A stretch of DNA of 9,672 bases from an uncultured Gemmatimonadota bacterium (GTDB lineage: Bacteria; SM23-81): positions 1 to 9,672 of the forward strand of contig CAZOYL010000101.1 in assembly GCA_964584035.1 (NCBI GenBank). Reading direction: 5' to 3'. Shown piece after piece: positions 1-3,000 of this stretch. Each line of letters begins with the position of its first letter. Position 1 is the first letter of the stretch. The position numbers were made by a program.

Positions 1-3000
1 CGAGCACCTGTTCGTCGGTGTCTCCGCCGCCTACTGGATGGTGGTGGGCGTGTGGGGAACAATGGTTCCCAACATGCTGGCCAAGATCCATCCCCCGCTG
101 GTGAAAACGGTTCTCCCGGCCCTGGCCAACGCGGAACCCGAATATCACTACATCATCCCATGTATCTTCGGGATCCTCCTGCTGACCCGATTGATCAATC
201 CCATCGCCTGGCTGAGCCGCTGGTCCCTGGCCTTCATCATCGGCTACACGGCCGGGGTGCGCTTCAGCCGGTATCTTCAGTCCGACTTCGTCGGGCAGAT
301 CAAGAGCACCATGATTTCCGCCGTCGTTCTCGGAGACAACGGATTTTCTATCGGGATGACCTTCTCCCACATCGTGCTCATTGTAGGGCTGGTCTGCGGC
401 CTGGCCTACTTCTTTTTCTCCAAGGAGCACAAGGGCGCGCTCGGAGCCGCCTCCCGGGTGGGCATCTACATCCTGATGGTCACCTTCGGAGCCTCCTTCG
501 GTTATACCGTCATGGCCCGTATTTCGCTCCTCATCGGCCGGATGTCGTTTCTCGGCGAGTGGCTCGGCCTCATTTTCGGGTGGTTCTCCTGAGAGATTTA
601 CGTTCCCGGTGAATTTTCCCTTGACACCCGGCTTACGTATTGATTACATTGAGTCTTTGGAGAGTTTTTAACGGCGGAGTGCTCTTATGGGATCACGGAA
701 GAACGCAGCCAAACCCATACGGAAAAATGCCCCCAGGCCGAAGGCCAACACCTTCGCTTTTACCAGGAAGAATTATCTCACCCTTCTGGCCGGTCTGGTG
801 GTTATCATCCTGGGATTCATCACCCTGAGAATGGGATCCATCACGCTGGCACCATTGCTTCTGGTCCTTGGTTACTGTGTCATCATTCCCATCGGCATTT
901 TGCTACGCCCCAAAACACCGAAACAGGAACAGCGGCAACCCTCTGCTGATCGCTGAGGAAATCGATCTCGCTTCAGTGTTTTTGACGGCGGAAGCGATCG
1001 GGGGCGATTAGCTCAGCTGGTCGAGAGCGCTTGCCTTACAAGCAAGAGGTCACTAGTTCGAATCCAGTATCGCCCATTGAGATAGTCTGTATTCGGGGTC
1101 GTAGTGCAGTCTGGTTTAACACGCTGGCCTGTCAAGCCAGAGATCGCCGGTTCAAATCCGGTCGGCCCCGCCAGTTACGAGGGCCCGGGGGATCCCCGGG
1201 CCCTTCGCTTTGCGGCCCGATGCGCGCGGCGCATTTACATCTTGACAATCTCCTACAAATTTGGTATGATTATAGGGTGGGCTCGCTGAAGTCCGATGAT
1301 GACACTCACGACAGGAGAAAAAATGATACCGGCACGCCAGAAACTCTTTTTAGCGATGATCCCGTTGATCGCCCTGCTAACAGCCTCTCCCGCCGCGGCC
1401 ATACACCTTCAGGATGCCTATGCCGAGGCCGGACCGGGAGAAGGGTACGACAAACTGGTGATCCTCGATCCGGGTGAGATATACACCGGCTATATGGTCG
1501 TGGATGGCAACACCAGCTGCGGCCTGCGCGGCAACGGAGCTTTGATCGTGCTGGACAGCGGCGCCCAGATCTGGGCCGGGAGCAGCTCCCGGCTGGACGT
1601 GGAAGGATGCATCATCACCGGGGGCAGCTACGGACTGAGCTTTGACTATACCAACAGCAGCGTGGTATCAAACTGTACCCTGACGGGCAACGGGGTGGGG
1701 GTGCGCACCTGGGTGGCCGATGTGATCGTCACCAACTGCATCATCGTCGACAACGATGAATACGGCATCTCCTGCCGGGAAGGCGCCGAGCCGACCGTCA
1801 TGTATAACGACGTCTGGGGCAATGGCGTGCTCAATTACGCTTCCTTCTGCCCCACCTGAGGCGGGGCCACGTGGGAGAGTTTCTCCCCCAACCCCGGCAC
1901 CGGCGAGATCAGTGACGATCCCCGGTTCTACGACCTTGAGTCCGGCAACTATAACCTGTCGACCGGCTCCCAGTGTATCGACAGAGGAGATCCCGACAGC
2001 CGGATCGATCCCGACGGCTCCCGCCTGGACATGGGCGCCCTGCCGACCTACAAGACGCCGCCCGAGGTCATCCTCATCCGACCTCAGCCCGCTCAACAGG
2101 ATGTTCCCCGACAGACGGCCATTCAGGCCACCTTCAATATGCCCATGGATCCCGGCACCTTCACCAGCGACCATGTGATCGTCTCCGGGCAGGGAGGAGA
2201 CCGCGGCGGAACGATCGACTATGATCCGTTGACTCATACGGTATCGTTCAGCCCGGATGAGCCCTTCCAGAGCGGAGAGACGGTATCGGTACAATTGACC
2301 AGCAGTCTCTCTTCGCTGTGGGATCAGACCCTGGCAGCCGACTACGGCTGGACATTCCAGATCAACACCAGCAGCGATGTGGTCGTAACCGATCCGATCG
2401 GCCTTCCCGACCGTTTCGCCCTGCAGCAGAACTATCCCAATCCCTTCAACGCCTGGACAACCATTCGATTCAGCTTCGAGACCTCCGGCCCGGTCACCCT
2501 GGGGGTGTACAACATGCTCGGACAGCTGGTGGAAACGCTGTATCGGGGGGAACTGCCGGCCGGTCAACACCAGATATCCTGGAACGGTACCGATCGGTCC
2601 GGCCGGCCTCTGGCCAGCGGCGTGTACTTCTGCCGCCTGGAGGCCGACAGCCGCAGCGAGATCAGGAGGATGGTGCTGTTGAAGTAGGGGCAGGGAAAAG
2701 TTTGGAGCTGTATTCATCTTTTGGGGAGATCTTCGGATCTCCCCTTTTTTATTAAAAAGCCCTCCCGGTCACGACCGGGCCGTGGCCAGCGGCGTGTACT
2801 TCTGCCGCCTGGAGGCGGGAGGAATGATCGAGGTGCAAAAGATGGTGCTGGAGCGGATACGAATCCACTTGACATAAGGTCCTCTATGGTGTAAAATTCA
2901 AAATAACCCCGGACAGAGGTTCTCATACCCTGAGGTTCCCCCCATGGGCCGGATGCGCACCCCCGAACCTGTCAAGCTGATCTGCGGATTCATCTTCGCG

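Follow-up and report, generated by a model that had tools for sequence, protein, structure and literature searches.

A candidate selenoprotein family with a Cys-x-x-Sec motif on a predicted beta-helix scaffold

We present a candidate selenoprotein family detected in the genome of an uncultured Gemmatimonadota bacterium. The window, i.e., the whole stretch of DNA that was analysed, is 9,672 nucleotides long, and its coordinates are identical to those of the contig (C101:1-9672). On its forward strand, positions 1323-2687 hold a reading frame with an in-frame TGA at 1857-1859. We conclude from sequence comparison, with a probability of about 0.9, that this frame forms one gene, that its product is a selenoprotein and that the UGA encodes selenocysteine (Sec). 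The genome-wide survey's note had stated that no selenoprotein model of NCBIfam covers the protein, and only beta-helix, Big_5 and T9SS tail matches were indeed obtained. Literature searches combining selenoproteins with beta-helix, T9SS, Zixibacteria or NosD did not find the family, which published family lists could include.

The ORF that begins at 1296 terminates at the TGA (1296-1859), and the same frame is then open up to the true stop codon TAG at 2685-2687. The start codon ATG at 1323 lies behind AGGAG, and the matching Met is the start in orthologs L030-L032. Counted from this codon, the frame constitutes the one 454-codon gene proposed in the survey, with Sec at residue 179 (188 when numbered from ATG 1296). 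The translated sequence starts with a putative signal peptide (MIPARQKLFLAMIPLIALLTASPAAA, 1323-1400), whose cleavage site is tentatively placed from an A-A-A motif. The Cys-Pro-Thr-Sec (CxxU) motif reported earlier is read directly in the translated frame as TGC CCC ACC TGA at 1848-1859; its context is F-C-P-T-U-G-G-A-T-W-E-S-F, or more widely NYASFCPT-U-GGATWESFSPNPGTGEISDDPR. Gene callers treat the coding sequence past the Sec codon (1860-2684) as a separate gene, and the first in-frame ATG of this part, at 2031, falls within a conserved helix cap. Upstream of the frame, a sigma-70-like promoter candidate at 1242-1270 (TTGACA, 17 nt, TG-TATGAT) fits the consensus at 11 of 12 positions and has an extended -10 TG; three promoter-like sites occur in the region compared to 0.5 expected, counted by consensus match only. 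Downstream, an intrinsic-terminator-like hairpin with a T run occupies 2723-2754 (9 pairs, 6 of them G-C, then TTTTTTATTA). All of these features are on the forward strand. The promoter-like and terminator-like sites flank the complete frame, and neither type is found between them. Neighbours in the window are DUF4416, radical SAM, YbbR, TsaD and a second T9SS protein. No partner gene is common to the loci among these neighbours and ten further family loci, where the gene order reflects synteny only (permease, MS channel, ATP synthase), with a sulfatase adjoining two of the ten and CBM96 one.

The domain architecture proposed in the survey, consisting of beta-helix, Big_5 and T9SS tail, is supported by models that all score above their cut-offs in the read-through product. 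In numbering from ATG 1296, Pfam places Beta_helix (PF13229, 47 bits, cut-off 25.9) and NosD (PF05048, 36.5 bits, cut-off 23.6) at residues 87-177 and the bacterial Ig-like domain Big_5 (56 bits, cut-off 23.6) at residues 253-355, corresponding to 2052-2360 of the window. The T9SS type A C-terminal sorting domain (2433-2675) is detected at residues 380-460 both by Por_Secre_tail of Pfam (28.5 bits against a cut-off of 27) and by TIGR04183 (38.1 against 23). The right-handed parallel beta-helix module extends across the TGA, from 1398 to 2045, and includes a C-terminal cap (PGTGEISDDPRF...GSQCIDRGDP...DMGA). This agrees with the earlier observation that the cap aligns across the TGA: the module can be modelled as one domain by AlphaFold2 with a pLDDT of 94.0 and a pTM of 0.91. 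The helix domain was modelled alone because a Foldseek search with the full-length model is dominated by Ig-like domains. VIA-align of the helix model yields a match to 7dmk_A (Z 14.8) and 110 chains at Z>=8. Judged by the model, the fold is a generic right-handed beta-helix; the structure scores favour no single beta-helix family, being distributed evenly among many of them. The model places the Cys of CxxU at a strand end and the Sec in the following loop before the next strand, near the C-terminal cap. Many family members lack the T9SS tail, and in the family's small forms only about 70 residues follow Sec, with no further domain. PorU, the sole T9SS machinery component that was sought, is present in the genome (708.4 bits, cut-off 420). 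The domains make it most likely that the protein is exported by the Sec translocon and subsequently, through the type IX system, reaches either the cell surface or the medium.

One line of evidence that the TGA is functional comes from its conservation. The survey had reported only two close orthologs, a count that is now superseded. The TGA column is the same in all six close orthologs with available DNA (99-57% identity), and a scan of genome contigs found TGA in that column at 12 of 18 loci. A longer motif pattern recovered 19 stretches of genome contigs, all 19 belonging to the family and all 19 with TGA in the column. Taken together, 27 distinct DNA sequences have TGA in the same column, down to ~35% protein identity; the TGA itself was read in these 27, while 84 family proteins are protein records only. 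The carriers are labelled Zixibacteria, TA06, Coatesbacteria, LCP-89 and further MAGs. A single-protein query against genome contigs returned distant relatives only, and a short back-translated pattern for C-P-G-U-G-G-G gave at least 120 stretches, where the 80 loci that were read were chance matches in G+C-rich DNA with no family member among them. Among short predicted family proteins in the public collection, 108 of 111 terminate exactly at C-x-x; two of the others end in N-C-G and one is cut by a contig end. Similarly, 75 of 77 homologs of the small form (133-426 aa) stop at the Sec column. The Cys of the motif (C185 from ATG 1296) is present without exception in all 40 aligned family sequences, and some members have the form CPG-U-GGGTW. 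A divergent branch shows a change from TGC..TGA (L133, L134) to TGA..TGA (L136). The insert, described earlier as absent from more distant relatives, was found as a loop in some of them. The family is widespread, and public databases list its members as truncated proteins.

The earlier claim that both flanks of the TGA are coding is borne out by codon substitutions. Estimates of dN/dS range from 0.12 to 0.35 before the TGA and from 0.24 to 0.41 after it in 10 of 10 ortholog pairs, with dS up to 1.6, which strongly supports purifying selection on both sides. The 57 codons from the TGA to ATG 2031 are conserved as protein (GGATWESFSPNPGTGEISDDPRF...) and form the same helix cap in TGA-less relatives.

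Conservation at the nucleotide level extends to a putative SECIS hairpin. In the ortholog with 89% identity (L030 here, L021 in the survey), the TGA is kept and the 47 nt past it are unchanged, as reported, the first difference being the 48th nt; a stretch of 20 nt that includes the hairpin is the longest over which four orthologs agree letter for letter. The hairpin GGGAGA-GUU-UCUCCC (1873-1887) begins 13 nt past the TGA rather than 15 nt as previously given, and spans nt 17-31 with G23 U24 U25 in the loop (the U of UGA being 1). By itself it is unremarkable: the z-score of a 64-nt fold is -0.39, and 14-17% of 28-nt windows in the gene fold equally well or hold an equally long stem. Rfam gave no match at E<=10 in window positions 1700-2100, and the 6-bp/GUU register of the window clade does no better than shuffled sequences when tested family-wide. 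The significant signal is found in the helix formed by columns 17-21/28-32 of the family alignment, where 82.3% of cells are paired compared to 64.7 +/- 2.8% in shuffled alignments and 41.5-59.2% in slid controls, and where the covariation score is 0.417 compared to 0.137; none of 500 shuffles reaches either value, with the caveat that these statistics treat related sequences as independent and thereby overstate independence. Pair 19-30 occurs as UA (9), GC (6), AU (4), CG (1) and GU (1), and all nine rows with the Tyr codon UAC have the Val codon GUA opposite. Paired substitutions in two codons preserve the stem, namely Glu/Ser, Tyr/Val, Ser/Thr, Thr/Ser and Lys/Phe. The Ser codon in the loop is AGU in 14 of 18 cases, whereas in the rest of these genes AGU makes up 7.1% of 560 Ser codons. 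A perfect stem of at least 5 bp starting at nt 14-17 was found in 24 of 27 sequences by a best-stem rule; G23 U24 is present in 15 of the 27, the loop G is missing in 4, and the stem is weakened in L010. Loop length is 3 nt within the window clade and ranges from 4 to 11 nt in the remainder of the family. These alignments strongly support the interpretation that the hairpin 13 nt past the UGA is kept as a structure by compensatory changes.

The genome encodes the machinery that Sec insertion would require. As the survey's note had listed, tRNA-Sec is present together with SelA, SelB and SelD, the proteins all scoring above curated cut-offs: SelB 379.9 bits (cut-off 242), SelA 547.7 (268) and SelD 352 (125), the last with one in-frame TGA, i.e., a Sec-containing SelD. 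SelB also exceeds the cut-off in four of five further carrier genomes; the fifth, a 1.1 Mb assembly, has a partial match. The assembly of the window genome consists of 279 contigs (91.7% completeness, 2.7% contamination), and as a result of this fragmentation the Sec machinery and the window gene are on different contigs. Genome-wide reassignment of TGA was considered and ruled out, since TGA is the commonest ordinary stop, ending 981 of 1739 long ORFs.

Candidate cysteine counterparts of the Sec residue are seen only in distant relatives. The survey's statement that no homolog has Cys at the site holds for close orthologs, none of which appeared in a Cys form in protein homology searches. It may not hold for distant relatives: BLASTP aligns NYIKNCG-U-SGG of L122 ungapped to NYCDHCG-C-PSD of P0287 (E 8e-22), and in P0063 and P0090 the residue that the family alignment sets against Sec is Cys, although these counterparts are 31-41% identical and the loop is one of uncertain alignment. 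Cys was placed at the site in 15 of 80 metagenome relatives, but only in an alignment where U had been written as C, which biases the result.

There are other ways to account for a TGA in this position. If the gene were decaying and the TGA had arisen by nonsense mutation or through faulty assembly, the product would be only a 178-residue N-terminal fragment (from ATG 1323), or nothing at all. Gene callers and GenBank annotation do present family members as proteins of about 171-186 aa, but TGA occupies this codon position in 27 distinct sequences of many lineages, the frame past it is open and under purifying selection, and the fragment would, according to the model, break off within a folded module. 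We regard this explanation as extremely improbable and close to refuted. Nearly the same applies to the possibility that the TGA closes a short beta-helix protein and that a Big_5/T9SS protein is started independently behind it, for which the in-frame ATG at 2031 and database entries starting past the TGA (such as P0029 and P0010) might be cited. The conserved 57 codons that precede this ATG, the absence of a promoter-like site between the two parts, and the existence of small family forms, which have no further domain past their Sec-distal residues, make two genes very improbable, and this reading is likewise close to refuted.

A different type of explanation is that the UGA is read by near-cognate insertion of Trp, Cys or Arg, or by a context-driven leak, yielding a full-length product without selenium. 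Such read-through is compatible with the sequence alone, and near the Sec column one relative that lacks the TGA, L132, carries Trp (TGG) or Gly. On the other hand, the site lies within a CxxU motif, a covarying hairpin with G-U in its loop follows at SECIS distance, and SelB was found in the carrier genomes that were tested, with the one partial match mentioned above. Moreover, a leak does not account for the fact that a stop codon, and not a sense codon, has been retained in 108 of 111 relatives. We therefore consider read-through without Sec unlikely, and Sec insertion the preferred reading.

By analogy with established Sec insertion in bacteria, SelB-GTP-Sec-tRNASec would bind the hairpin and deliver Sec to the UGA. 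The product, with its signal peptide, short right-handed beta-helix, Big_5 and T9SS sorting domain, would then be exported. CxxU is the classical partner arrangement for Sec, and the Cys and Sec of the motif may form a reversible selenenylsulfide or, alternatively, a soft-metal site, which would be the functional centre of the protein. A broader and tentative proposal, which we think possible but rather doubtful, sees the family as an extracytoplasmic module that depends on Sec almost obligately, with a selenol for catalysis or metal handling mounted on a beta-helix scaffold. Anaerobic sediment lineages (labelled Zixibacteria, TA06, Coatesbacteria, LCP-89) would export it, often in tandem copies, for redox or soft-metal/metalloid chemistry outside the cytoplasm.

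If the Sec reading is true, more than 100 database entries (90%-identity clusters), listed as "parallel beta-helix repeat proteins" of about 175 residues, are front halves of selenoproteins, and the window genome and similar ones use more selenium than annotated. Under the broader proposal, the beta-helix fold would have its first selenoenzyme, or its first binding site based on selenium, and homology filters that demand Cys homologs would by design be blind to the family. A SECIS inside the coding sequence, its stem kept by paired codon changes, would be a case of RNA structure dictating the residues of a protein loop, and a Cys-Sec pair on an exported beta-helix would provide a new setting for the role of selenium outside the cytoplasm of anaerobes.

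The family can be compared to known systems at several levels. Known beta-helix proteins, including polysaccharide lyases, pectate lyases, phage tailspikes and NosD, have only 9-17% sequence identity to the window helix. The fold resembles the PL6 alginate lyase 7dmk (rmsd 3.5 over 185 aligned residues) and NosD in 7o0y_A (Z 11.9, rmsd 4.1, 164 aligned). The NCBIfam model for NosD in N2O-reductase maturation (NosD_copper_fam, TIGR04247) does not match the window protein at E<=0.1, and family member L127 reaches 18.4 bits against TIGR04247, below the cut-off of 300. No selenoprotein was seen among the structures listed as matches to the helix model. According to the deep-Sep paper (PMC12013277), known selenoprotein families have numerous Cys homologs, whereas close relatives in the window family are almost all Sec forms. 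The family is almost without close Cys forms and thereby shows what filters based on Sec/Cys pairs overlook, a weakness conceded by the deep-Sep authors in their Discussion.

Like the SECIS of Escherichia coli fdhF, the window hairpin is a stem-loop at a short fixed distance past the UGA with G23 U24 in the apical loop. The fdhF stem-loop comprises nt 15-31, 11 nt from the UGA, as given in the review PMC8659212; its bulged U17 is not evident in the family, where SelB binding is putative. The Omp28-related (NF045500) and UshA-like (NF041198, NF049981) proteins are exported selenoproteins curated by NCBI, so that a selenoprotein leaving the cytoplasm is not new in itself. Their folds and families are unrelated to the window protein, which matches none of the three models at E<=0.1. 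The genome has relatives of both, one with a T9SS tail (L110) and one adjoining selA/selB (L115), which score below the curated cut-offs (46.7 vs 200 and 123.5 vs 275 bits). Sec also occurs in two other proteins of this genome, namely a Prx (FTFV-U-PTE) and a Thioredoxin_7 protein (G-U-RPC). Finally, the SelB/SECIS-dependent bacterial selenoproteins with a redox pair of the type Cys-x-x-Sec or Sec-x-x-Cys (Trx-like, Prx and DsbA-like) share with the window gene the in-frame UGA, the hairpin that directly follows it within the coding sequence, and a Cys spaced two residues from Sec. In those proteins the pair is at the N-terminus of a helix in a thioredoxin fold, whereas in the window protein it would be located in a strand-loop-strand of a beta-helix.

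Contig and window coordinates coincide, because the window starts at the first base of C101. On the forward strand, an open reading frame (1296..1859) stops at a TGA at 1857-1859, past which the same frame reopens and continues to a TAG at 2685-2687; the start codon is ATG 1323, which is preceded by AGGAG and gives 454 codons. Cys-Pro-Thr stands directly before the TGA, forming a CxxU motif. The genome-wide survey's note had described a 454-codon gene read through this TGA, with a signal peptide, a beta-helix, Big_5 and a T9SS end, and our analysis agrees: the frame is open from ATG 1323 to the TAG, the N-terminus of the read-through product is signal-peptide-like, and three domains score above curated cut-offs, namely Beta_helix/NosD (residues 87-177, counted as all residues here from ATG 1296), Big_5 (253-355) and the T9SS sorting domain (380-460). 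We estimate the probability that 1323-2687 is a single selenoprotein gene at about 90%.

Several observations concern the unity of the gene across the TGA. The cap module (YNDVWGN ... PGTGEIS.DP.F ... GS.CID.G ... DMGA), which the note had aligned across the TGA, is indeed uninterrupted at this point in relatives that lack the TGA, and the first in-frame ATG past the TGA (2031) lies within the conserved cap. Residues 33-255 are modelled by AlphaFold2 as one beta-helix domain (pLDDT 94.0, pTM 0.91; pLDDT 83.0 for the full-length model). A promoter-like site (1242-1270; 11 of 12 positions match) precedes the whole frame, and a terminator-like hairpin (2723-2744) with a T run follows it. All four components listed in the note, tRNA-Sec, SelA, SelB and SelD, were found in the genome, the SelD gene itself having an in-frame TGA. 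TGA is otherwise a normal stop codon here, since 981 of 1739 long ORFs end in it. Elsewhere in the window, a second T9SS cargo gene without TGA lies at 7254-9338 (694 aa; Big_5, FlgD_ig, weak Por_Secre_tail), and a DUF4416 gene lies at 2944-3477, with an ORF of equal length (177 aa) downstream of the ortholog in L010 (1750-2283).

The TGA is kept at the same column in four metagenome loci (L029-L032; 99, 89, 71 and 72% identity) and in L010, from a genome of another genus (57% identity); all have a single in-frame TGA and, where the sequence reaches the end, a terminal TAG or TAA. The dN/dS ratio is 0.12-0.35 before the TGA and 0.24-0.41 after it (five sequences, 10 pairs; dS up to 1.6). In all, 76 of 80 metagenome loci are distant relatives with no TGA at the site. 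Short proteins were sought in a 5.8-billion-protein collection, with 56 matches (36-92% identity), or 57 proteins with the database protein P0093; 55 of the 57 end exactly at C-x-x. In a second search, whose query was a small family member, 75 of 77 matches of 133-426 aa stop at the Sec column. Pooled, the two sets comprise 111 short proteins: 108 end in C-x-x (CPG 67, CPT 17, CSG 12, CVG 4, others 8), two end in N-C-G and one is cut by the contig end. Several of them, at 171-180 aa, carry the GenBank name 'right-handed parallel beta-helix repeat-containing protein', and these family members are therefore annotated as truncated.

At the DNA level, the stop is TGA in 12 of 18 loci from a genome scan (the other six comprise one cut before the site, one whose alignment ends earlier, one spanning it without TGA and three from a divergent branch) and in all 19 stretches from a specific pattern scan. 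Where the note had counted two close orthologs only, we thus find 27 distinct sequences with TGA at one column, labelled as Zixibacteria, TA06, Coatesbacteria, LCP-89, one 'Gemmatimonadota' MAG and unclassified MAGs, with the consensus N-Y-x-x-[FWY]-C-[PS]-G-U-G-G-G-[TS]-W-x-x-F-x-P-x-P-G-T-G-E-I. SelB scores above its cut-off in four of five other carrier genomes; in the fifth, an assembly of 1.1 Mb, the match is partial. The Coatesbacteria carrier has three tandem small copies on one chromosome (L263/L264/L265, about 820-930 nt apart), another genome has two (L266/L267), and in L122 the family gene is preceded, at a distance of ~1 kb, by another beta-helix ORF. In one locus the conserved TGA is preceded by an extra one in the same frame (L121:2726-2728), at a site where the paralog L119 has Tyr (..AL-U-YQE vs ..ALYYD). 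An error, a pseudogene and a second Sec are all conceivable explanations.

The note's statement that no homolog with Cys at the site was found stands for close orthologs, none of which was found in Cys form in searches of protein collections. Distant TGA-less relatives do have Cys in the loop, at 31-41% identity and in a stretch whose alignment is uncertain. The protein P0287 (NYCDHCG-C-PSD) aligns without gaps to L122 (NYIKNCG-U-SGG; BLASTP, 34% identity, E 8e-22), and P0063 and P0090 have Cys at the Sec column of alignment A9; other relatives have Tyr, or Gly/Trp in locus L132. The divergent branch consists of ~720-aa T9SS proteins sharing an N-terminal GPGEGYDKL motif (L133:581-2758, L134:561-2729, L136:602-2707). 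Two MAGs have TGC GAC TAY GGN TGA (L-C-D-Y-G-U; L133, L134) and a third has TGA GAG TAC GGC TGA (L-U-E-Y-G-U; L136), with two Sec four codons apart, so that the partner Cys itself swaps with Sec. These proteins may form another selenoprotein family that has escaped annotation, or may hold a diselenide.

Across the genome, 8448 in-frame TGAs have 40 open codons on either side, and 99 of these have a coding score on both sides; ten were chosen by motif for a closer look. They include a Prx whose peroxidatic residue is Sec (129 bits), an Omp28-like protein with U-x-x-C and a T9SS tail, together with its two paralogs, a Thioredoxin_7-TPR protein, and PrdB-like and UshA-like proteins, each below curated cut-offs; two had no match in the profile search and one was a false positive formed by two adjacent genes. 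The three paralogs (L110, G000:C36:17031-18101; L111, C244; L112, C260) share ELF-x-[ST]-[ST]-[ST]-U-G-x-C and, some 27 nt past the TGA, the conserved hairpin CUUGACAGUGUUGUCAAG, and L110, which has Omp28 and a T9SS tail, matches NCBIfam Omp28_seleno weakly (46.7 bits, cut-off 200). The UshA/SoxB-like metallophosphoesterase L115 (G000:C140:3661-5001; EPSG-U-RGC) scores 123.5 bits against NCBIfam UshA_like_PCGU (cut-off 275), on a contig that also bears selA and selB.

The helix domain is about equally similar to many beta-helix proteins (Z>=8 in 110 chains; Foldseek was also run), including PL6 alginate lyase 7dmk_A (Z 14.8), NosD in 7o0y_A (Z 11.9), tailspikes and pectate lyases. In the model, strand 179-185 ends in Cys185, Sec188 lies in loop 186-191, and strand 192-195 follows. 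This Cys-Sec pair, three residues apart and replaceable by Sec-Sec in the sister branch, may form a redox-active selenenylsulfide or serve as a soft-metal site. Export of the window protein is suggested by its signal peptide and T9SS tail, together with the PorU found in the genome. Many members of the family are short, at about 245 aa, and have no T9SS tail; the small forms (L122-L131, L259-L268) end in a conserved ...P-T-S-[FL]-G-[RK]-V-K-A-L-[FY]-x where the T9SS domain would stand, a motif for which no family match was found. The gene neighbourhoods of the window and ten other loci have no shared partner gene. A sulfatase gene adjoins the family gene in two of ten loci (L127:2414-4321, L128:317-2212) and a CBM96 carbohydrate-binding protein in one (L126:3404-4027), a slight sign that the family may be connected with sulfated glycans.

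As the note had held for NCBIfam, release 20 contains no selenoprotein model for the family: the window protein, like three further members, matches only generic beta-helix or T9SS models. Selenoprotein export is not new, since the release already models other exported selenoproteins (Omp28_seleno, UshA-like). The literature covered, which for BSepDB and deep-Sep comprised their main texts, yielded no account of such a family; in neither main text do the strings 'helix', 'NosD', 'T9SS' or 'secret' occur. The deep-Sep Discussion states that Cys homologs now seem to exist for every known selenoprotein, and that the method may lose any without them (PMC12013277). We conclude that the feature is real, a new family of predicted selenoproteins that would be made by canonical bacterial Sec insertion.

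In the window, the TGA is followed by the hairpin GGGAGA-GUU-UCUCCC (1873-1887, forward strand; nt 17-31 when the U of UGA is nt 1). On its own it is unexceptional (z = -0.39; 14-17% of short segments of the gene do equally well). Among the window gene and its 89-71% orthologs, it is covered by the gene's longest identical nucleotide run (20 nt), and its codons able to vary synonymously are identical in 5 of 5 cases, against 140 of 279 gene-wide. Across the family the hairpin is kept at one place despite differing sequences (stems such as GGACAG/CUGUCC, GGAGAG/CUCUCC, GGCAA/UUGCC, UGGUAC/GUACCA, GGAGU/ACUCC, GGACU/AGUCC and GGAAG/CUUCC), with a perfect stem of at least 5 bp starting at nt 14-17 in 24 of 27 sequences (best-stem rule); the 6-bp register of the window's own clade is not general. 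In helix columns 17-21/28-32, 82.3% of cells are paired, compared with 64.7 +/- 2.8 in shuffles (0/500) and 41.5-59.2% in slid controls, and covariation is 0.417 against 0.137 (0/500). The covarying bases belong to two different codons, and amino acids therefore change in pairs (Glu..Ser, Tyr..Val, Ser..Thr, Thr..Ser, Lys..Phe); Val GUA stands opposite Tyr UAC in all nine rows with Tyr UAC. Of 18 loop Ser codons, 14 are AGU, a codon that makes up 7.1% of the Ser codons in the rest of these genes. GU-containing hairpin loops also follow the TGA in the genome's Prx, Trx-like, PrdB-like and Omp28-like genes. The loop lacks G in four of the 27 family hairpins, and 15 have G23 and U24, the two positions that a review (PMC8659212) gives for the E. 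coli fdhF SECIS.
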